Below, piece after piece: positions 5,644 through 58,614 of a DNA stretch of 64,000 bases (the stretch's first letter is position 1; each line of letters starts with the position of its first letter). The notes under the pieces were generated by a model. It saw only the letters and a list, made by a program, of their open reading frames with translations, was not told the origin of the DNA and ran no database searches. A program made the translations under genes and the position numbers. Origin of the DNA: Escherichia coli (GTDB lineage Bacteria; Pseudomonadota; Gammaproteobacteria; Enterobacterales; Enterobacteriaceae); assembly GCF_003790525.1 (NCBI RefSeq), contig NZ_CP033635.1; one strand, 5' to 3'.

Positions 5644-6261
5644 ATGATTAAGGTGTATGGCGTACCCGGCTGGGGCTCTACAATCAGTGAGCTGATGCTA
5701 ACACTGGCTGATATTCCTTATCAGTTCGTTGATGTCAGTGGTTTTGACCGCGAGGGAACTTCACGCGAGTTATTGAAAACCCTGAACCCGTTGTGTCAGA
5801 TTCCGACACTGGCGCTGGAAAATGACGAGATTATGACGGAGACAGCGGCGATTGCATTGATGGTTCTCGATCGTCGCCCGGACCTTGCGCCACCGCTTGG
5901 GCGCGTCGAACGTCAGCAGTTTCAACAGTTATTGGTCTGGCTGGTTGCTAATGTCTATCCAACATTCACTTTCGCCGATTACCCTGAGCGTTGGGCTCCT
6001 GACGCACCCGAACAGTTAAAGAATAATGTTATTGAATATCGTAAATCGCTTTATATCTGGCTGAATTCACAATTGACCGCTGAACCGTATGTGTTTGGAG
6101 AGCAACTAACGCTGGTGGACTGTTATCTCTGCACCATGCGCACATGGGGACCGGGACACGAATGGTTTCAGGATAATGCCCCGAACATCAATGCGATTGC
6201 TGATGCTGTATGTCAGATACCAAAGCTAAAAGGGATACTAAAGAGGAATGGAATCATTTAA
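5644..6261 (+). CDS. yncG: Glutathione S-transferase homologue YncG
   Basis: 205-aa ORF with GST-like N-terminal thioredoxin fold sequence; conserved neighbour of ansP. Confidence 0.85.
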   Translation: MIKVYGVPGWGSTISELMLTLADIPYQFVDVSGFDREGTSRELLKTLNPLCQIPTLALENDEIMTETAAIALMVLDRRPDLAPPLGRVERQQFQQLLVWLVANVYPTFTFADYPERWAPDAPEQLKNNVIEYRKSLYIWLNSQLTAEPYVFGEQLTLVDCYLCTMRTWGPGHEWFQDNAPNINAIADAVCQIPKLKGILKRNGII

Positions 6262-6845
6262 TTATTTTTCCCATCGATTTCGCCCACTTTCTTTCGCCCG
6301 GTATAACGCAGCGTCGGCATCTGAAATAATTTGTTCAGCCGTTTTTGCGGGAGCAGAACAGGTAATCCCCTGACTAACCGTAACGAATGCATTAACAGCA
6401 GATGCCTGATGCGGGATAGCTGCCAGTTTAAGTTCTTGCTTCACTCTGGCTGCTACCGTCTCTGCTTCCGGCAATGTTGCATTAAAAAGTATGATGACAA
6501 ACTCTTCGCCACCATAACGGACAACAACATCCTCCGACTGGCGAGTTGAACGCTGTAGAGCGTCGGCAACTTGTATTAGACAACGATCCCCAGCAGGATG
6601 CCCGTAAGTGTCGTTGTAACGTTTAAAAAAATCGACATCCAGCATAATAAGAGCAAATGACCCGCCGTTATCTATCGCGTCGTGTAAGATACTGTTCATT
6701 GCACGTCGGTTTGCTATCCCAGTTAAAGGATCACGATGTGCTAATGCATCAAGGCGATTAATTAACTGGTTGTTATAACTGTTTTGTACCCATGCTTCTT
6801 CAAACCAACGTAACAAAATGAGTCGCCCACCATATAGCGCCAGTG

Positions 6846-6853
6846 AAAAAATA
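6846..6853. repeat. IS1 target-site duplication, left copy (aaaaaata)
   Basis: Same 8-bp sequence directly flanks both IS1 ends. Confidence 0.6.
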
Positions 6854-6868
6854 GGTAATGACTCCAAC

Positions 6869-7372
6869 TTATTGATAGTGTTTTATGTTCAGATAATGCC
6901 CGATGACTTTGTCATGCAGCTCCACCGATTTTGAGAACGACAGCGACTTCCGTCCCAGCCGTGCCAGGTGCTGCCTCAGATTCAGGTTATGCCGCTCAAT
7001 TCGCTGCGTATATCGCTTGCTGATTACGTGCAGCTTTCCCTTCAGGCGGGATTCATACAGCGGCCAGCCATCCGTCATCCATATCACCACGTCAAAGGGT
7101 GACAGCAGGCTCATAAGACGCCCCAGCGTCGCCATCGTGCGTTCACCGAATACGTGCGCAACAACCGTCTTCCGGAGCCTGTCATACGCGTAAAACAGCC
7201 AGCGCTGGCGCGATTTAGCCCCGACATAGCCCCACTGTTCGTCCATTTCCGCACAGACGATGACGTCACTGCCCGGCTGTATGCGCGAGGTTACCGACTG
7301 CGGCCTGAGTTTTTTAAGTGACGTAAAATCGTGTTGAGGCCAACGCCCATAATGCGGGCTGTTGCCCGGCAT
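6869..7372 (-). CDS. insB: IS1 InsB (catalytic part; InsAB' is made by -1 frameshifting)
   Basis: 167-aa ORF matching IS1 InsB; overlaps insA in the -1 frame as in canonical IS1. Confidence 0.9.
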
Positions 7373-7566
7373 CCAACGCCATTCATGGCCATATCAATGA
7401 TTTTCTGGTGCGTACCGGGTTGAGAAGCGGTGTAAGTGAACTGCAGTTGCCATGTTTTACGGCAGTGAGAGCAGAGATAGCGCTGATGTCCGGCGGTGCT
7501 TTTGCCGTTACGCACCACCCCGTCAGTAGCTGAACAGGAGGGACAGCTGATAGAAACAGAAGCCAC
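7291..7566 (-). CDS. insA: IS1 InsA (transposition repressor / N-terminal part of the transposase)
   Basis: 91-aa [42 protein letters not shown]… is the IS1 InsA sequence. Confidence 0.92.
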
Positions 7567-7621
7567 TGGAGCACCTCAAAAACACCATCATATACTAAAT
7601 CAGTAAGTTGGCAGCATCACC

Positions 7622-7629
7622 AAAAAATA
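7622..7629. repeat. IS1 target-site duplication, right copy (aaaaaata)
   Basis: Same 8-bp sequence directly flanks both IS1 ends. Confidence 0.6.
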
Positions 7630-8142
7630 CACCATACAACAGCAAAATGAATATTGATCTGTTGATTAAGCATAAGACTCGCTATTGGAGTGGTGAACCA
7701 TAAGGGAATGACAAATGCGAGCAATGATGGGGTATGGAAATAAAGTGCGATAACGCCACTAAGCATTAATAATACACATAGTGGATAAGCAAACTGCAGC
7801 GTCCAGTACGCAATAAAGTGATAACTACACCATGACCATAGCAGGCTCAGGGCAACTAATAGCACCTGGATAGGTAATGTTTTTTGCCGAGGGATGAGTA
7901 GTAAACCACTGCAAATCAGCAGAATACCCGTTGCAGATATATCAATAGAATGTATAAGGCTTTTTTCATTTAACCAGGGTGGAGTAAGGTCATTAAACAG
8001 AACACGGCGCAGCAAAATTATCAATGCAAAACTGACATTGATAAAAGCAAACCATGGCAAACTAATCGTCATGCCGCGAATAACCATATCGCGGCGGGTT
8101 TTCCATGAGTGATGCGTTTTTCTTCGTTCAGCCATTTTTTAA

Positions 8143-8167
8143 CCAAAAAAGGGCAGGATACCTGCCC
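8143..8167 (-). terminator. Rho-independent terminator after the alkyl-sulfatase gene
   Basis: Stem gggcagg-ata-cctgccc followed on the minus strand by a T-run (plus-strand aaaaaa at 8145-8150). Confidence 0.5.
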
Positions 8168-8181
8168 GGTATGCAGTAAAT

Positions 8182-10158
8182 TTATGGTGTCACTATATTG
8201 AACCAAAATTCAAAATTATCCATATAACCTAACAGCTCGTTGAGTTTTTCCGCATTGCCAGTAATTTTGACATCTTCTTTGGCCGTGGCTTCTTTCAGCG
8301 TCTCTTCTTTCAGTACAATTTTGTTCAATACATCACGAGACAGAGTGATAGTGGCATCAGCATCCGAAGCCTCTACACCAGCGGTATGATTGAGAACACC
8401 ATTTTCAAGCTCCACTTTATAGGTGCCGCCATCTTCACCAAAATCGAAATTCAACACGGTTTTGGCATCTGCCGCTTTCTCACCATTAATATGGACGGCA
8501 AGATAATCAAAGAACATCTCCGGCGTCATCGCACGCACGGTGTCTGGGCTGGCAGTATTTGGTGTTGGTAATTTTTGTACGCCATTACGCAATTCCTGTG
8601 CGCCAGTGAGATAGAAATTACGCCACGGCCCAGATTCAGCCTGATAGCCTAACTGCTCAAGCGCATCAGCTTCCAGATTTCTCGCTGCCTGGTTGTTTGG
8701 ATCGGTAAACACCACCTTACTAACAACTTGGGCAACCCAGCGGAAATTACCCTGGTCATAATCCTGTTTGGCTTTCTGTAAAATGGCATCAGCACCGCCC
8801 ATATACTCGACGAATTTTTTTGCGCCTTCTTCTGGCGGCAGTTCATCAAGCGTCGCGGGGTTACCATCAAACCAGCCGAGATAAAGCACGTAAGTTGCTT
8901 TCACGTCATGACTTACCGAACCGTAATAGCCGCGATTCGCCCAGGTATTAGCCAGTGAAGAGGGCAGTTTAAAGTTTGCGGCAATTTCATCACGGGTCAT
9001 CCCTTGATTTGCCATACGCAGAGTTTGATCATTGATGTAACGATACAAATCACGCTGGCTTTTAAGCAGTTTGACCACGTTATCGTTGCCCCAGGTTGGC
9101 CAGTGATGTTGAGCGAGAATAATCTCGGCTTTATCTCCCCATAAATTGAGAGCTTCGTTAATATATTTTGACCACGGCAGCGGTTGGCGAATTTTAGCCC
9201 CACGCAGCGAATAGGTGTTATGAAGGGTGTGCGTGACATCTTCAGCGGTTTCGATCAGTTTCTTTTCTTCAATAAACCACAGCATTTCAGAAGGCGCTTC
9301 AGAGCCTGGCGCCATCAAGAAATCATAGGTCAACCCGTCAATAGTTTCTTTTTGTCCGGTTTTGGTGATGTAGTTAGTAGGAGCAATCAACGTGACCGTT
9401 CCTGCTGAAGTGGTTGTTCCCAGTCCCGCGCCAACCTGGCCTTTAACATCAGGTTTCAATAAGTTGCCATACATATAACTGGCTCGTCGGCTCATCACAT
9501 TGCCAGCCATAATATTTTCGGAAACGGCTTCCTCCAAAAATCCGGCTGGCGCGTAGATTTTAACTTTGCCTGATTTAACGTCAGCTTCATCAATTACGCC
9601 GCGAACACCACCGTAGTGATCGACATGACTGTGTGTGTAGATAACCGCTACTACCGGTTTTTTGTCGCGATTTTTGTAATAGAGATCCATACCCACTTTG
9701 GCTGTTTCTGCTGAAACAAGGGGATCAACGATGGTAATACCCTCTTTGCCTTCAATGATGGTCATATTTGATAGATCGAGATTGCGAATCTGATAGACAC
9801 CTTCAGTTACTTCGAATAACCCGCTGATATTTATCAGTTGCGCCTGACGCCATAAACTTGGATTCACCGTATCAGGGGCTTTATCACCTTCTTTAATAAA
9901 AGCGTATTGTTGTGGATCCCAGATAACATTTCCTTTTTCGCCCTTAATCACGTCTTGAGGGATAGGGGCAACAAAACCTTTATGGGCATCAGTAAAGTCA
10001 GTGTTATCAGAAAACGGCAACTGGTTGTAGAGTAAATTGTTTGCTTGTTGCGTGGCTGCGGTGGCGTCTTTAGGGGCTTCCGCCGCGAGGAGTGGCAAAG
10101 AACTGGTGGTGAATAATCCCGTTATTAGCAGACTTTTAACAATATGATTAAGCTGCAT
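8182..10158 (-). CDS. Secreted metallo-beta-lactamase-fold alkyl/aryl sulfatase (SdsA1/YjcS-like)
   Basis: 658-aa ORF with Sec signal peptide, MBL metal-binding motif (…YTHSHVDHYGG…), then dimerisation and SCP2-like C-terminal regions typical of type III alkylsulfatases. Confidence 0.8.
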   Translation of the reverse strand: MQLNHIVKSLLITGLFTTSSLPLLAAEAPKDATAATQQANNLLYNQLPFSDNTDFTDAHKGFVAPIPQDVIKGEKGNVIWDPQQYAFIKEGDKAPDTVNPSLWRQAQLINISGLFEVTEGVYQIRNLDLSNMTIIEGKEGITIVDPLVSAETAKVGMDLYYKNRDKKPVVAVIYTHSHVDHYGGVRGVIDEADVKSGKVKIYAPAGFLEEAVSENIMAGNVMSRRASYMYGNLLKPDVKGQVGAGLGTTTSAGTVTLIAPTNYITKTGQKETIDGLTYDFLMAPGSEAPSEMLWFIEEKKLIETAEDVTHTLHNTYSLRGAKIRQPLPWSKYINEALNLWGDKAEIILAQHHWPTWGNDNVVKLLKSQRDLYRYINDQTLRMANQGMTRDEIAANFKLPSSLANTWANRGYYGSVSHDVKATYVLYLGWFDGNPATLDELPPEEGAKKFVEYMGGADAILQKAKQDYDQGNFRWVAQVVSKVVFTDPNNQAARNLEADALEQLGYQAESGPWRNFYLTGAQELRNGVQKLPTPNTASPDTVRAMTPEMFFDYLAVHINGEKAADAKTVLNFDFGEDGGTYKVELENGVLNHTAGVEASDADATITLSRDVLNKIVLKEETLKEATAKEDVKITGNAEKLNELLGYMDNFEFWFNIVTP

Positions 10159-12378: not shown

Positions 12379-13272
12379 TCAGAGTTTAATTGCCCATTCG
12401 GCATGAAACAAAATCACCGCCGTGCCAGAAATGGTGACTTTCTCCGGTTGGTTATCACGAATTGTCACCGTCACTTCAATCACGCCGTCACGCCCTAATG
12501 CGCGCCCCTGATGGCCTTTAACACGCAACACGTTGCCATCGTGTGGCAATACGTTGTGATGTACTAACTATGCACCCATCGGGCCATTGGCATTGCCAGT
12601 CACCGGATCTTCCACAATACCAATCGCAGGCGAGAACATGCGACCATCGGTTTCGTTTTTGCCTGGGCGGATCTGGAACGGGAAGAAACCATTGCAGCCA
12701 ATCTGTTTGCTGATTGTGGTCAGCGCAGCAAGGTCAGGCGAAAGGGCGTCGATATCCACTTCCGGCTTCAGTGGAATCATCACTTTTGAGTGTCCTGTGG
12801 TAGCCACCTGGATTGGCAAGCCTTGCAAAATATCGTCTTCAGTGAGATGAAGCGCGTTGATAATCGCTGCACGTGTTTCACCTTCCAGCGGTGGTTCAAA
12901 GCCCGGCGTACCTTGCTCCAGCGAAATACGATAATCATCATTTTGCTTTTCGATAGTCACACGATGTTTTCCTGCCAGCGACGTTTGCCAGACGGTGCAA
13001 TTTCCTAAACCTAACACCTTTGCACGTACATAGTGCGCAGCTACTGTCGCGTGACCACAAATCGGAACTTCAACCGTTGGCGTAAAGTAGCGGATGCGCA
13101 CATCGCTGTCGTCGCTGTGCAGCAGAAAAGCAGTTTCCGAATGACCTAACTCGCGGGCGATAAGCTGCATTTGCGCTTCGCTAAGATTATCGGCGGGGAA
13201 AACAACACCGGCAGAATTGCCGCGAAACGGTTGAGAGGTAAAAGCATCGACGTGGTAAACCTGCGGTTTCAT
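12379..13272 (-). pseudogene. yddE: PhzF-family isomerase YddE, interrupted by an in-frame amber codon
   Basis: The ORF stops at TAG (plus-strand cta, 12568-12570) after 234 codons; the same frame then runs a further 62 codons to TGA at 12379-12381, giving the 297-aa full-length YddE. Confidence 0.7.
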
Positions 13273-35884: not shown

Positions 35885-36316
35885 ATGACAATCCATAAGA
35901 AAGGTCAGGCACACTGGGAAGGCGATATCAAACGCGGGAAGGGAACTGTATCCACCGAGAGCGGCGTGCTGAACCAACAGCCGTATGGATTTAACACGCG
36001 TTTTGAAGGCGAAAAAGGAACCAACCCTGAAGAACTGATTGGCGCAGCGCATGCCGCATGTTTCTCAATGGCGCTTTCATTAATGCTGGGGGAAGCGGGA
36101 TTCACGCCAACATCGATTGATACCACCGCCGATGTGTCGCTGGATAAAGTGGATGCCGGTTTTGCGATTACTAAAATCGCACTGAAAAGCGAAGTTGCGG
36201 TGCCGGGTATTGATGCCTCTACTTTTGACGGCATTATCCAGAAAGCAAAAGCAGGATGCCCGGTTTCTCAGGTACTGAAAGCTGAAATTACGCTTGATTA
36301 CCAGTTGAAATCATAA
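35885..36316 (+). CDS. osmC: Osmotically inducible peroxiredoxin OsmC
   Basis: 143-aa OsmC/Ohr-family ORF with the two conserved cysteines (…AACFSMAL…, …AGCPVSQ…). Confidence 0.92.
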   Translation: MTIHKKGQAHWEGDIKRGKGTVSTESGVLNQQPYGFNTRFEGEKGTNPEELIGAAHAACFSMALSLMLGEAGFTPTSIDTTADVSLDKVDAGFAITKIALKSEVAVPGIDASTFDGIIQKAKAGCPVSQVLKAEITLDYQLKS

Positions 36317-42593: not shown

Positions 42594-44993
42594 TCAGATT
42601 TTCAGCGGTAACACGCTGCTCATCCAGCCTGGAATTTCTTCGGCGGGTAGGGGGCGGGAAAAGAAATATCCCTGAATAACGCGACAGTGGATCTTGCGTA
42701 GCATCTCAAATTGCTCTTTGGTTTCGACGCCTTCCGCCACGACGGTTAAATTAAGGCTTTGCCCAATGCTGGTAATGGCTTCAAGTAAGGCAAGGATGCG
42801 TTTTTCGGTCAGACAACGATCGACAAAACTTTTGTCAATTTTGATTTCCGTTACTGGAAGACTGACTAAGCGGGATAATCCGGAAAAGCCCGTGCCAAAA
42901 TCATCTACCGATAAACCCACGCCCATATCGCGCAGGATCTGAATGCGCTTAAAGATTTCGGTATCGTGTTCCATCATCATGCTTTCCGTGATTTCTACCG
43001 TCAGCTGGTGGCCGTCAATACCCCAGGCTTGCATTGCATCAGACACCTGATTAGGCAGCTGATTACTGCGAAAGTGCAGCGCCGACAAGTTCACGGATAA
43101 CGCCGGGATATGAATATTCTGGCTACGCCATTCTGCTAACTGACGGCAAGCTTCCGCGATGACCCAGCGTCCAATATTTTCGATTTCACCGATCTCTTCT
43201 GCGAGAGGAATAAACCGTGAAGGGGGCACATGACCATGCAGGGGATCGTGCCAGCGAGCAAGGGCTTCGATGCCGTACAGTTCACCCGTTTCTGCGAAGA
43301 TTTGTGGCTGGTAAACCAGTTTCAGTTGGTTATTGCTAATTGCTTCTTTCAGCGCCGCGCCTAAAACCAAACGCTCTTTTACCATTTCGTTCATCGCCGG
43401 GCTGAAGAACTGCCAGCCGTTACCGCCATTTTTGCGAATAAAATCCATTGCATTGTGAGCAGTGGAGAGCAGGTAATCGCGGTTTTTACCCACGTCGTAG
43501 CTGATGCCAATGCTCAAGGTGAGCGGGAATGGTTTATCGTCAATCATTATCGGCTTGCTGACCACATTCCGTAGCTCATCGGCGATCTGCGTAATGTTAC
43601 TGACGTCGTTTTCGAGGCTCACGAGGACAAACTGCGTACCTTCGATACGACAGAGATATTGATCCGGTTTGAGTTTTTCACGAAAGCGATTGACCACTTC
43701 CAGCAATGCCTGATCGGCCCACGCATAGCCAAGGCTATCAATCACATCCTGAATATGGTCAACACCGATGAGATACACCACTGGAGAGACGGCTTTGTCG
43801 ACCAGGTCATCGAGGTAATTGTGCAGGTTATTGCGATTTGGCAGACCGGTCATCGGATCAAATTGGATGAGTTGTTCAATATGCTGACGGCTTTTTTCCT
43901 GTTCCAGCGCCAGCGCGGCCATATGCTGGCTGATATCTGCCACGCGTTCGATAAAGGCGCTGGTTTCTGCTCCTGACGAGGTTTTAATTTGCAGGATCCC
44001 CGCCGGCGCGCCATCACGCTGACGAATGGTCGCTGACCAGCTTTGCGCATTTTGAACTTCTGTACCGTGCGAAGATGACGCCCAGTGTATCGGCATCCCG
44101 TTGCGCAGCGCGTACAGCGAAACATGCGATTCGTTGAGTACAGATTCGATGTTACGACAAATGATTTCCCCCATTTCATGAAATGGCGGGCTGCTGCACA
44201 TGGCGGCGAGAATATTGCCTTCAAGCTGGCGGATTTGCCGTTCTTCGGTGATATCCGAGAAGGTCATTACCAGGTTCTGCAGATGCGCGAGCACGTCATA
44301 AACCGGGCTGATAGAGGCTTTAATCCAGATTTTTTCACCGGTGCGCGTCAACAGCAGAAATTCATCCTGATCGCGGGCGGTTTTCCATAGCAACTGTTGT
44401 AAACGAATGCGGTTATCGGCAGGGAATTCAGGAATGTTAAGGAGTGAATCGGGCTGCATACCGCTGGCTTCGCTAATGCAGTAACCAAACATTTCGGTAA
44501 ATGCGCGATTGCACTGCACAATATGGCGTTCCGGATCGAGGACAATCACCGGTCGGTCGAGATGGTCAACGGCAATAATCAATTGTCGGGTCTGTTCTTT
44601 TTGCGCCATTTCTACGCTGGCATCCCGTACCAGCGCCAGGTAATAAACTTTCCCCTCGGCGCTCACTTTCGATAGCGCAAAACGGGTCCAGATTTTACTG
44701 CCGTCTTTTTTCTCCAGCTGCAGCTCCCGACTCATCCCCTCGACGCGCGCTTTACCGCCTTCACGGTTATGACGAATGTATTCAGGATGCGCAGGACGCA
44801 AATCCCGCGGAATCAGCATATCAATGTTATTGCCAATGACTTCTTCACGTTTGTACCCCCAGAGCTTCTCTGCGGCGGGGTTGAAAAACATCACTTCATC
44901 ATTTTCGTTAATTAACACCGCACCCATCATATTTTGCTCAAGGGCGGGGAAAAAAATGCCATCGGCGGCATTATCCGCATCGGTTAGCTTCAT
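42594..44993 (-). CDS. dosP: Heme-regulated c-di-GMP phosphodiesterase (PAS-PAS-GGDEF-EAL)
   Basis: 799-aa product from MKLTDADNAADGIFF…; the EAL-domain sequence (…GIEALARW…) is present. Confidence 0.9.
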   Translation of the reverse strand: MKLTDADNAADGIFFPALEQNMMGAVLINENDEVMFFNPAAEKLWGYKREEVIGNNIDMLIPRDLRPAHPEYIRHNREGGKARVEGMSRELQLEKKDGSKIWTRFALSKVSAEGKVYYLALVRDASVEMAQKEQTRQLIIAVDHLDRPVIVLDPERHIVQCNRAFTEMFGYCISEASGMQPDSLLNIPEFPADNRIRLQQLLWKTARDQDEFLLLTRTGEKIWIKASISPVYDVLAHLQNLVMTFSDITEERQIRQLEGNILAAMCSSPPFHEMGEIICRNIESVLNESHVSLYALRNGMPIHWASSSHGTEVQNAQSWSATIRQRDGAPAGILQIKTSSGAETSAFIERVADISQHMAALALEQEKSRQHIEQLIQFDPMTGLPNRNNLHNYLDDLVDKAVSPVVYLIGVDHIQDVIDSLGYAWADQALLEVVNRFREKLKPDQYLCRIEGTQFVLVSLENDVSNITQIADELRNVVSKPIMIDDKPFPLTLSIGISYDVGKNRDYLLSTAHNAMDFIRKNGGNGWQFFSPAMNEMVKERLVLGAALKEAISNNQLKLVYQPQIFAETGELYGIEALARWHDPLHGHVPPSRFIPLAEEIGEIENIGRWVIAEACRQLAEWRSQNIHIPALSVNLSALHFRSNQLPNQVSDAMQAWGIDGHQLTVEITESMMMEHDTEIFKRIQILRDMGVGLSVDDFGTGFSGLSRLVSLPVTEIKIDKSFVDRCLTEKRILALLEAITSIGQSLNLTVVAEGVETKEQFEMLRKIHCRVIQGYFFSRPLPAEEIPGWMSSVLPLKI

Positions 44994-45017
44994 AATTACC
45001 TCTGCATCCTGACGCAT

Positions 45018-46400
45018 CTAAAGACTGGCTTTCCAGAGTTCAACACGGTTTCTACCTCGTCTTTTGGCGATATACAGAGCTTCATCGGCTATTTGAATGA
45101 GGCGCTCATAGTCAGGATGACCATTAAACATGGCGGCACCGATGGAAAGTGAGAGGGCAATATCCTCGCCGTTTGCGGCTTTCAGTTTGGTTTTCTCCAC
45201 CCGACTGCGAATACGTTCTGCGGTACGTAACGTTTCGTTTTCCGAAGCTTCAGTCAAAACAATGATAAATTCATCGCCCCCGTAGCGGAAAACATAATCA
45301 CTACTGCGGACGTTGTCATAAAAGGCCTGAGAGACTTTACGCAGAATTTCATCGCCAGTGTTATGGCCCCACGTATCGTTAATCTCTTTGAATTTATCAA
45401 CGTCAATAATCAGCACTGACAGCGGTGTACCGGTCCGGTTGGCATGGGCAATTTCGCGTTTGAAGATCGTCGGCAGGAAACGGCGGTTAAGTAATTTCGT
45501 CAGTACATCCATACCGACTTCGTGGCGCGATACTTCTTCAAACAATTCACGCAACAAGGTAATAATTTGCGATACGGTATTTCTTATCTGTAATAAAAAT
45601 TTCACCCGTAAACTTCTGTTATTCAAATTCCTGGTGTTACGCATGGTTTGATTGAAAATACCGTCGAAATCCTGAATCAGACGGGAGATATGGCCCACTT
45701 CGGCTATGCCGCTAAAATAATGTCGACCTTTATGGTTAAACCACAGGCCAAAATCAGCCTGGCTTAAAGGCAAACTACTGCCTAAATCAGAATCCAGCAG
45801 GACTTTATAGATAATATCTATTTCCCATGAAAGTATTGAGGCTATTTGCCGTTCTTTTTCTTCTTCGGCATTTTCCAGTAACGAGAAGATACGATAGTTT
45901 TCATCTTCCTTTGAGGCACTACTGTCACTAAAGGTAAACGCGCGGGTCATCACTTCCATAGCGATATCAATACTGTTAATCGAGAAATGGTAGACCTGAA
46001 GTTTTTCCGCGGCGGAATAATCCGAAGAGAAGATGACCGGATAGAGGATTTTTTTCAGCACCCGAAACCCCATCTCGACAATTTCTACCGGAATTCCTAT
46101 GCGGGCATGCACTTCCGCGACGGTATGCTGGATTTGTATTAGCCTTTCGACATCGTCAACCTGGGCAGAAAGCACGTTAATAATCCAGCGTTCCATCGCA
46201 CTTTTCAACTGCCGCTCAACTTGTTCATTACTCAAGAATTCTTCGGCATGCGGGTCGATACGGACAATTCGGTAAAACTCAATACTCAGATAATGGGCAT
46301 GCGCAACGGCAATTTCCGCGGCTTTAGCACGAATGAGCGGATCTGCTTGTTCGACAAGCCCGGTCCACTCATCTTTCATTCTTTTAAAATACATCTCCAT
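45018..46400 (-). CDS. dosC: Globin-coupled diguanylate cyclase
   Basis: 460-aa ORF with N-terminal globin sensor and C-terminal GGDEF (RYGGDEF); 24 bp upstream of dosP. Confidence 0.9.
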   Translation of the reverse strand: MEMYFKRMKDEWTGLVEQADPLIRAKAAEIAVAHAHYLSIEFYRIVRIDPHAEEFLSNEQVERQLKSAMERWIINVLSAQVDDVERLIQIQHTVAEVHARIGIPVEIVEMGFRVLKKILYPVIFSSDYSAAEKLQVYHFSINSIDIAMEVMTRAFTFSDSSASKEDENYRIFSLLENAEEEKERQIASILSWEIDIIYKVLLDSDLGSSLPLSQADFGLWFNHKGRHYFSGIAEVGHISRLIQDFDGIFNQTMRNTRNLNNRSLRVKFLLQIRNTVSQIITLLRELFEEVSRHEVGMDVLTKLLNRRFLPTIFKREIAHANRTGTPLSVLIIDVDKFKEINDTWGHNTGDEILRKVSQAFYDNVRSSDYVFRYGGDEFIIVLTEASENETLRTAERIRSRVEKTKLKAANGEDIALSLSIGAAMFNGHPDYERLIQIADEALYIAKRRGRNRVELWKASL

Positions 46401-56928: not shown

Positions 56929-58614
56929 TTATAAAACCGCGCTAATGTCACAAATATCATCGGCCAGGTTCCAGACACCGGGTTGATGTGTAACCATAAT
57001 GACGCCGCTTGTGGGGAGTTTTTCTCGCACTAAACGCAGTAAGCGGATTGCCTCTTGTTCCTCAAGATGAGAGGTAGTTTCGTCAAGAAATATCCATTTC
57101 GGACGTCGTAAAATTAATCGAGCCAGGGCGATACGTTGTTTTTCGCCGCTGGAAAGAATATCTCCCCAGCGATCGTGGTCATGAATACGCGTAGCCAATT
57201 TCCCCAGCCCAACCTGATGCAGTACTTCACTCAACGATTTATCGTCTACGGACAGGGGAAGTGCTTTACAAATAATCTCTTTCAGTAAGCCGGTTTTGAT
57301 TAACGGTGTTTGTGACACATACCAACTGTCAGCAGGAGAAGAAATATCACCTTTAAACCACGGCCAGCAGTGGGATAATGTTTTAAGCAGTGTGGTTTTT
57401 CCCGTACCAGAGTAACCTTTCAGCAATAGCCATTTGCCTGGCAAAACATGAAAGTTCAGGTTCTCTAATATGATCTTATTATCAGGAGTACGAATACTCG
57501 CGTCAGCCACTTGTACCGCATGTTGGCAATTTTTAGGCTTATTCGTAGGGCGCTGTTCGGTGAGTTGATGGAACTCAGACAAGCGATCGATAACCGCAGC
57601 CAGTACAGCAAGTTCATCATATTTATAAATAAACCAGCTTAAATTGTTCGATACCAGCATAAATGCCTGGCGCGATTTCATCAGTCCGCCCAGATTGATC
57701 TGTCCGCTAATAAACTGCGGCAATAACAGAAAGTAGGGAAGAACGCTAAGCGAGCGCGAATAAATATTCTGCCAGTAATCAAGCCACCGCTGACGATTCA
57801 TTAAACGATGCCAGTTCTCTTTAATGGTATGAAAATTTTCGCTCAACTCCTGGCGTTGTAGAGACTCAGCATTGCTTAGCGCAATCAGTTCTGCCTGCTT
57901 ATTATGCTGCACAAGATTAGTTCGAAATGTCGCTTCGCTACGTTGTTTTTCCACATTAAGCGGACGAATACGTTTACCAACCTTATGGGTAAATAAAGTT
58001 CCACCGATCACAATGAGCACGACGGTATAGACCATATACCCCTGGATATTCCATTCAGTTCCACCAACAGTGAATGAGAGCGTACCCGCGCTTTGCCAAA
58101 GAATAACGGTAAAGGTGATCAGCATGCTAAGTGACTGGATGAAGCCAAATGAAAGACTGAGCGTTTTGCTGATCAGTAAGAGAATGTCTTCAGCGATACG
58201 TTGGTCAGGGTTATCTGTATTTTTATGCTCGCCGTAGATCTGCGTGAAGTAGTAGTTTTTATCTGCAAACCAGCGATTAAGGTAGTAATCTGTTAACCAT
58301 TCGCGCCAGCGAATAGTCAGTAGTTTAATTAACCATGTTTTGTTTACGGATATTAATACAAAGATCCCCAGCAGGGCAGGGAACCAAAGGACAAGCTGCC
58401 AAAGCTTATCAGTTTCTTTCTGGCTTAGCGCATTGAAAAAATCATTATTCCAGTCGTTTAACCAGACCTGAATTTTAACCACGCCAAGGATCATGGCGAG
58501 GATAATAATGATTAACAACACTGAAGTTTTATTATTCTTACGCAGCCAAAAGGGCTTCAGCAGACAGAGATACTTTGCTATCAACATACAAAACGTAATG
58601 GGAATGGTTATCAT
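56929..58614 (-). CDS. yddA: ABC transporter, fused permease/ATPase (SbmA/BacA-like N-terminal domain)
   Basis: 561-aa ORF: N-terminal TM domain plus C-terminal ABC ATPase (GYSGTGKTT Walker A; LSSGEKQR signature). Confidence 0.88.
   Translation of the reverse strand: MITIPITFCMLIAKYLCLLKPFWLRKNNKTSVLLIIIILAMILGVVKIQVWLNDWNNDFFNALSQKETDKLWQLVLWFPALLGIFVLISVNKTWLIKLLTIRWREWLTDYYLNRWFADKNYYFTQIYGEHKNTDNPDQRIAEDILLLISKTLSLSFGFIQSLSMLITFTVILWQSAGTLSFTVGGTEWNIQGYMVYTVVLIVIGGTLFTHKVGKRIRPLNVEKQRSEATFRTNLVQHNKQAELIALSNAESLQRQELSENFHTIKENWHRLMNRQRWLDYWQNIYSRSLSVLPYFLLLPQFISGQINLGGLMKSRQAFMLVSNNLSWFIYKYDELAVLAAVIDRLSEFHQLTEQRPTNKPKNCQHAVQVADASIRTPDNKIILENLNFHVLPGKWLLLKGYSGTGKTTLLKTLSHCWPWFKGDISSPADSWYVSQTPLIKTGLLKEIICKALPLSVDDKSLSEVLHQVGLGKLATRIHDHDRWGDILSSGEKQRIALARLILRRPKWIFLDETTSHLEEQEAIRLLRLVREKLPTSGVIMVTHQPGVWNLADDICDISAVL

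Follow-up and report, generated by a model that had tools for sequence, protein, structure and literature searches.

We report that the diguanylate cyclase gene dgcY is interrupted by an insertion sequence in the window, a term used here for the whole stretch of 64,000 nucleotides of Escherichia coli DNA that was analyzed. It is very likely that an IS1A element transposed into dgcY with duplication of 8 bp, that the gene was split, and that the full-length enzyme was lost, giving an allele that we write dgcY::IS1. An IS1A-type element transposed into the chromosomal dgcY of a strain very close to SMS-3-5 (phylogroup F), where an 8-bp staggered cut led to the duplication of AAAAAATA and to the splitting of dgcY after nt 514. 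The MASE5 part of the product is thus reduced to a 172-aa stub, ...WCIFW* (ORF 7617-8135), whose last Trp and stop codon are supplied by the IS1 end, and the GGDEF domain is left with neither a start codon, nor a ribosome-binding context, nor a membrane anchor. Since the stub ends in IS1 and the GGDEF part has no start, full-length DgcY should no longer be made, and dgcY::IS1 would therefore be a loss-of-function allele. Judged from the sequence, the functional consequence would be the loss of DgcY.

The inserted element occupies positions 6854..7621 and measures 768 bp between canonical IS1 ends. Its transposase genes lie on the minus strand, in the same orientation as dgcY. The left inverted repeat, proximal to insA, is located at 7599..7621 (minus strand, GGTGATGCTGCCAACTTACTGAT; plus-strand reading ATCAGTAAGTTGGCAGCATCACC) and the right inverted repeat, distal to insB, at 6854..6876 (minus strand; plus-strand reading GGTAATGACTCCAACTTATTGAT). 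In the insA-to-insB orientation, the termini form imperfect inverted repeats in which 18 of 23 bases agree. The insA gene (7291..7566, minus strand, 91 aa), taken from the list of open reading frames, encodes a product that aligned with positions 1-81 of the NCBIfam profile NF033558 (transpos_IS1) and also matched the IS1 zinc-binding domain. The product of insB' (6869..7372, minus strand, 167 aa) aligned with positions 75-199 of the same profile (E = 1.8e-42). An A6C motif, TTAAAAAACTC, is present at 7307..7317 (minus strand), at IS position 305; we take it to be the site of the programmed -1 frameshift by which insA and insB' are fused into the InsAB' transposase. With its canonical termini at 6854 and 7621 and its intact insA and insB', the element is indeed the complete 768-bp IS1 that the original prediction had described. 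As every one of its sequence features is intact, this copy may have kept the ability to transpose.

Compared with IS1A and the IS1 family, the element shows no substantial difference: the length of 768 bp, imperfect repeats of 23 bp at the ends, the insA and insB' genes, the A6C motif and the duplication of 8 bp of an A+T-rich target are all shared, and only the exact sequence variant is uncommon. A single IS1 copy is present in the 64-kb window. A Shigella origin of the DNA, considered on account of the IS1, was set aside in view of this single copy and of the near identity of the window to E. coli SMS-3-5. Six E. coli plasmids of 130-150 kb, most of them from chicken isolates, carry copies that match the element at 100% identity and are annotated as 'IS1-like element IS1A family transposase'; these six exact matches were found in the best-scoring 5000 PLSDB plasmid records, which makes the variant uncommon. 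Because the exact variant matches copies on six E. coli plasmids, a plasmid-borne donor of the inserted copy is plausible.

The element is bordered by two direct copies of AAAAAATA, at 6846..6853 and at 7622..7629. The duplication is of exactly 8 bp, with no extension to 9, since the bases beyond both copies differ. When 6262-6853 was joined to 7630-8135, the equivalent of excising 6846-7621, 1098 nt were restored in frame, or 365 aa and a stop codon, so that the in-frame ORF of about 365 aa that had been expected after excision was obtained. At least 30 complete genomes have an uninterrupted gene, annotated as 'GGDEF domain-containing protein', that is 100% identical to the restored gene (1098/1098 nt); in SMS-3-5, this counterpart lies at 1723273-1724370 of NC_010498.1. 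When the interrupted region (6200-8250) was used as the query, both flanks were found adjacent in the same genomes, with a matched span of 1275 bp, i.e., the 2051-bp query less the 768 bp of IS1 and the 8 bp of one repeat. In the direct comparison of the window with SMS-3-5, the left flank ends and the right flank starts at one reference coordinate, and a single AAAAAATA is present there. The contiguity of the flanks around this single copy proves a pair of filled and empty sites and not a chance repeat. The predicted 8-bp duplication is thus confirmed by two copies here for one in SMS-3-5. Likewise, the uninterrupted homologues that the original prediction presupposed were found, identical at 100%, and the flanks, which it took to be contiguous in relatives, are adjacent in SMS-3-5 and in other genomes.

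Both parts of dgcY are read on the minus strand. The 5' part (nt 1-514, 7622..8135) encodes the N-terminus, the predicted helices 1-5 of the MASE5 domain and the first half of helix 6, and the 3' part (nt 507-1098, 6262..6853) encodes the second half of helix 6 and the entire GGDEF domain. The hydropathy scan of the restored protein gave about six predicted transmembrane segments, and the last of these (residues 163-183) contains the insertion point, after nt 514 (codon 172). Pfam assigned residues 25-206 to MASE5 (PF17178, model positions 2-192 of 192, E = 7.4e-44) and residues 207-362 to GGDEF (PF00990, model positions 1-161 of 161, E = 1.7e-48), and the product scored 158 bits against TIGR00254, for a cut-off of 37.4. 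The GGEEF motif is found at residues 283-287 (window 6499-6513, minus strand). These matches, the hydropathy profile and the motif agree with the multi-helix N-terminal domain and the GGDEF domain with GGEEF that had been read from the sequence. They also settle the N-terminal sensor family that was to be identified, namely MASE5 (PF17178); the gene itself had already received a name, dgcY, as that of an accessory cyclase. The product is accordingly described as an accessory, non-K-12 membrane cyclase, with a MASE5 domain of about six predicted helices and a cytoplasmic GGDEF domain carrying GGEEF.

The GGDEF domain aligns over its full length to the solved cyclases WspR, PleD and DgcZ. In an alignment of the MASE5-GGDEF family made with approximately 50%-identical homologues from Enterobacter, Salmonella, Hafnia, Pantoea and Leclercia, residues D241, D243, K246, N249, D250, D258, R281, K356 and R360 are invariant. 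On these grounds, intact DgcY would be an active cyclase that makes c-di-GMP. The canonical allosteric I-site, RxxD located five residues before GGEEF, was not found, as the positions aligned with the RxxD of WspR read QSED. Many cyclases have such a site, but it is not required. At residues 273-277 (window approx. 6529-6543, minus strand), the protein has RxxxD, with the Arg one residue further upstream, and this arrangement is conserved throughout the family. It suggests that product inhibition is altered or absent in the MASE5-GGDEF family. As for the start of the protein, the RefSeq product begins at M17 (window 8087) and has 349 aa (WP_000236738.1), and the longest ORF has 365 aa. The N-terminus before M17 has counterparts in other genera, and only M17-V18 is invariant there.

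In the SalmoNet2 paper (10.1101/2021.12.20.473597), which cites Povolotsky and Hengge (2016), the gene of SMS-3-5 is named dgcY (yreP in Salmonella), and the alkyl-sulfatase gene EcSMS35_1714/yjcS is given as its neighbour. The window copy shares with the SMS-3-5 gene 100% of its nucleotides after excision, and the same locus between yncG and EcSMS35_1714. It differs in being broken by IS1 after nt 514, whereas the gene of SMS-3-5 is uninterrupted. Two other identities were considered and rejected. DgcX, a MASE4-GGDEF cyclase, is absent from K-12, membrane-anchored, endowed with GGEEF, patchily distributed among strains and horizontally acquired (PMC10459773). The dgcY product resembles it as a horizontally acquired, non-K-12, membrane-anchored accessory cyclase with GGEEF and a patchy distribution. 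However, the Pfam match is to MASE5 and not to MASE4, and the known dgcX loci (ybhC/ybhB, ydaW/uspF and argW/dsdC) are prophage-associated, unlike the yncG-pptA locus of the window; for DgcX, moreover, activity was shown by experiment. DgcF (YneF) was dismissed too, at 27% identity restricted to the GGDEF domain alone, and the DgcF of SMS-3-5 has no MASE5 match.

Our search detected dgcY in 443 of 5426 complete E. coli genomes (8%), with at least 99% identity in 434 records. In 436 of the 443 records, at least 80% of the gene is in one place, and it forms a single piece in all the rows that were sampled. Since the gene is nearly always in one piece in complete genomes, an insertion hotspot in dgcY is unsupported, and a recurrent destruction of the gene was rejected on the same count. 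The dgcY::IS1 allele itself was present in none of the 5426 complete RefSeq genomes of E. coli; the sole record covering more than 80% of the interrupted query is arranged differently, its gene being intact and accompanied by an ISAs1 fragment and an IS1 of 93% identity. Over the 64-kb window, the differences from SMS-3-5 amount to IS1, 3 SNPs and one single-base indel, and the restored dgcY has no substitution relative to SMS-3-5. The insertion is considered recent because of these zero substitutions, of the 3 SNPs and 1 indel over 63 kb, and of its absence from the 5426 genomes. The same three observations support the recent inactivation put forward in the original prediction.

The allele is not confined to one assembly. 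A 156-aa stub, running from M17 to ...WCIFW with its final Trp encoded by the IS1 end, is present in the protein collection. Its contig, Logan SRR25608274_194, comes from an independent short-read assembly, is recorded in 7 samples, and has at its end the very junction of dgcY and IS1 seen here, down to the variant base of the window IS1. Other lesions of dgcY were observed elsewhere. In OZ040295.1, the gene carries a 1195-bp IS5-like insertion after nt 619, with a 4-bp duplication (locus L007, 2761-3955); at the same locus, an IS1 (353-1120) that differs from the window IS1 at 4 positions is inserted in the sulfatase gene and yncG is truncated. In DBFPVN010000023.1 (locus L006, 3342-4438), dgcY has a 1-bp deletion. 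The dgcY lesions in these two records are independent of dgcY::IS1.

The other differences between the window and SMS-3-5 fall outside this locus. In yddE, which encodes a PhzF-family isomerase (12379-13272, minus strand), codon W235 is changed to TAG at 12568-12570, owing to the T at 12569. In SMS-3-5 the codon is TGG and the gene, of 297 aa, is intact, which makes yddE the second inactivated gene of the window strain. The SNP at 27214 affects codon 66 of fdnG (E66 in the window, D in SMS-3-5), and that at 57578 affects codon 346 of yddA (S346 in the window, Y in SMS-3-5). All three point differences in 63 kb (3/3) change a protein, a number too small for any conclusion. The indel, at 35955, lies in osmC (35885-36316, plus strand), which is an intact ORF of 143 aa in the window; in the RefSeq sequence of SMS-3-5 there is one C fewer and the gene is annotated as frameshifted. 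This corresponds either to a real difference or to an error in the older SMS-3-5 assembly.

The SMS-3-5 gene order is yncG, dgcY, the alkyl/aryl-sulfatase gene, then pptA. In the window, the upstream neighbour of dgcY, identified from the RefSeq annotation of the identical SMS-3-5 gene, is this alkyl/aryl-sulfatase gene (8182..10158, minus strand, 658 aa), whose product matches the Pfam families Lactamase_B, Alkyl_sulf_dimr and Alkyl_sulf_C. This gene, the known partner of dgcY, is untouched by IS1. On the other side, yncG (5644..6261, plus strand; ORF list and annotation), a member of the glutathione S-transferase family, is convergent with dgcY. The stop codons of yncG and dgcY are directly adjacent at 6261/6262 (6259-6264, 0-bp spacing), so that the dgcY-sulfatase block abuts yncG with no intergenic terminator. 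No downstream gene should be affected by the insertion, as no co-oriented gene follows dgcY and yncG is convergent, and no polar effect of IS1 on other genes is expected. A 48%-identical MASE5-GGDEF homologue adjoins a 659-aa alkyl-sulfatase gene in Salmonella enterica subsp. indica (loci L014/L015, 1736-5128), where the pair is divergently oriented and occupies another chromosomal locus. No sulfatase neighbour was found for the MASE5-GGDEF homologues of Enterobacter and Hafnia. A universal linkage between dgcY and the sulfatase gene was thus rejected, as it is seen in E. coli and S. enterica subsp. indica and is absent in Enterobacter and Hafnia. A functional tie between alkyl-sulfate or detergent metabolism and a DgcY-type cyclase is nevertheless possible, in view of the gene neighbourhood.

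The gap between the sulfatase gene and dgcY (8135-8182) is filled by a strong terminator-like hairpin and a T-run, leaving no room for a promoter before the first ATG of dgcY. This hairpin, predicted by a consensus scan (GGGCAGG-TAT-CCTGCCC, then TTTTTT; 8151..8167, minus strand), separates the stop codon of the sulfatase gene from the start of dgcY and lies 16 nt before the first ATG. The scan for consensus promoters of dgcY yielded none that was convincing, with one weak promoter-like match inside the gene. Because of this upstream hairpin and of the want of a convincing promoter, dgcY may be poorly expressed even when intact. In the papers that were read, no report on the enzymatic activity or expression of DgcY was found.

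The loss of dgcY may change c-di-GMP levels, the c-di-GMP network or the behaviour of the strain. E. coli has many other cyclases besides DgcY, and the phenotype of dgcY::IS1 is perhaps small since these include an intact dosC in the window. The genes dosC (45018-46400) and dosP (42594-45017) are located about 37 kb from dgcY. Both are annotated as intact in SMS-3-5, and none of the four SNP or indel differences falls inside them. The earlier statement that dosC and dosP are intact therefore holds, their sequence being the same as that of the intact SMS-3-5 genes.

One reading accepts the insertion as real and denies it any phenotype: dgcY would be silent or conditional in this lineage, and the c-di-GMP network effectively unchanged. 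Given the hairpin before the first ATG and the lack of a convincing promoter, we regard such a silent loss as a serious possibility, if a tentative one. The accessory nature of a gene carried by 8% of complete genomes, together with the other lesions known (the IS5-like insertion in OZ040295.1 and the 1-bp deletion in DBFPVN010000023.1), also speaks in its favour. However, the gene is almost always intact in the complete genomes that have it and all its catalytic motifs are conserved, which points to purifying selection and hence to a use of dgcY. Also, the promoter of a Pantoea MASE5-GGEEF gene was reported to be active in biofilm and on roots (PMC8294551), which argues against silence. The return of the sulfatase pairing in S. 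enterica subsp. indica likewise speaks against a gene of no use.

A further reading keeps the loss of the enzyme and gives it an adaptive value. The dgcY::IS1 allele would then mark a clonal sub-lineage of SMS-3-5-like strains (phylogroup F), represented by at least 7 samples, in which the loss was selected as the pruning of a sulfatase-linked c-di-GMP input; in a variant of this proposal, the MASE5 stub would be regulatory. It draws also on the independent IS5-like insertion and 1-bp deletion in dgcY. We consider it improbable.

That the split gene gives active products, with a 172-aa MASE5 stub that interferes with partner proteins and a soluble, deregulated GGDEF domain expressed by read-through from IS1, is more doubtful still. 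In its favour, dgcY and the IS1 transposase genes are co-oriented, and the C-terminal ORF of 201 aa (6262-6867) extends without a stop into the IS1 end, where a TTG is found at 6867, two nt after the insB' stop. Against this, the sequence before the GGDEF domain contains no ATG, and the TTG codons found there lack a recognisable ribosome-binding site. Strong polarity is a known trait of IS1 insertions, whichever way they are oriented. Moreover, GGDEF domains need dimerisation, which usually comes from the N-terminal part. Finally, the misplacement of an IS1 copy into dgcY during assembly is hardly credible: assemblies do often break or misjoin at multicopy repeats such as IS1, but the exact 8-bp duplication around exact IS1 termini, and an independent short-read contig with the identical left junction in 7 samples, speak against such an artefact.

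The preferred interpretation is therefore still that of an IS1A insertion that abolished full-length DgcY. Both IS1A and dgcY are already catalogued, and the insertion is a known, ordinary kind of event, even though no publication describing the dgcY::IS1 allele was found. Strain-specific loss of single GGDEF or EAL genes is common in E. coli and Shigella (PMC5635695; PMC5635171; PMC10333796). For example, other lesions in c-di-GMP genes of E. coli include the 5' deletion of dgcF in K-12 and frameshifts or stops in pdeR, yjcC and ycgG, and in Shigella the decay is driven by IS elements. These cases share with ours the inactivation of a single gene by mobile elements or point mutations; here the gene is dgcY and the cause is IS1.

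Beyond strain annotation, dgcY::IS1 matters little. The window strain should be recorded as dgcY-negative, and this status is relevant for comparisons of biofilm and motility among SMS-3-5-like and phylogroup F isolates. Also, SMS-3-5, in which the gene is intact, and the dgcY::IS1 strain, which departs from it at only a few other sites per 64 kb, form a near-isogenic pair, which may serve as a natural knockout for the study of DgcY and its alkyl-sulfatase partner.
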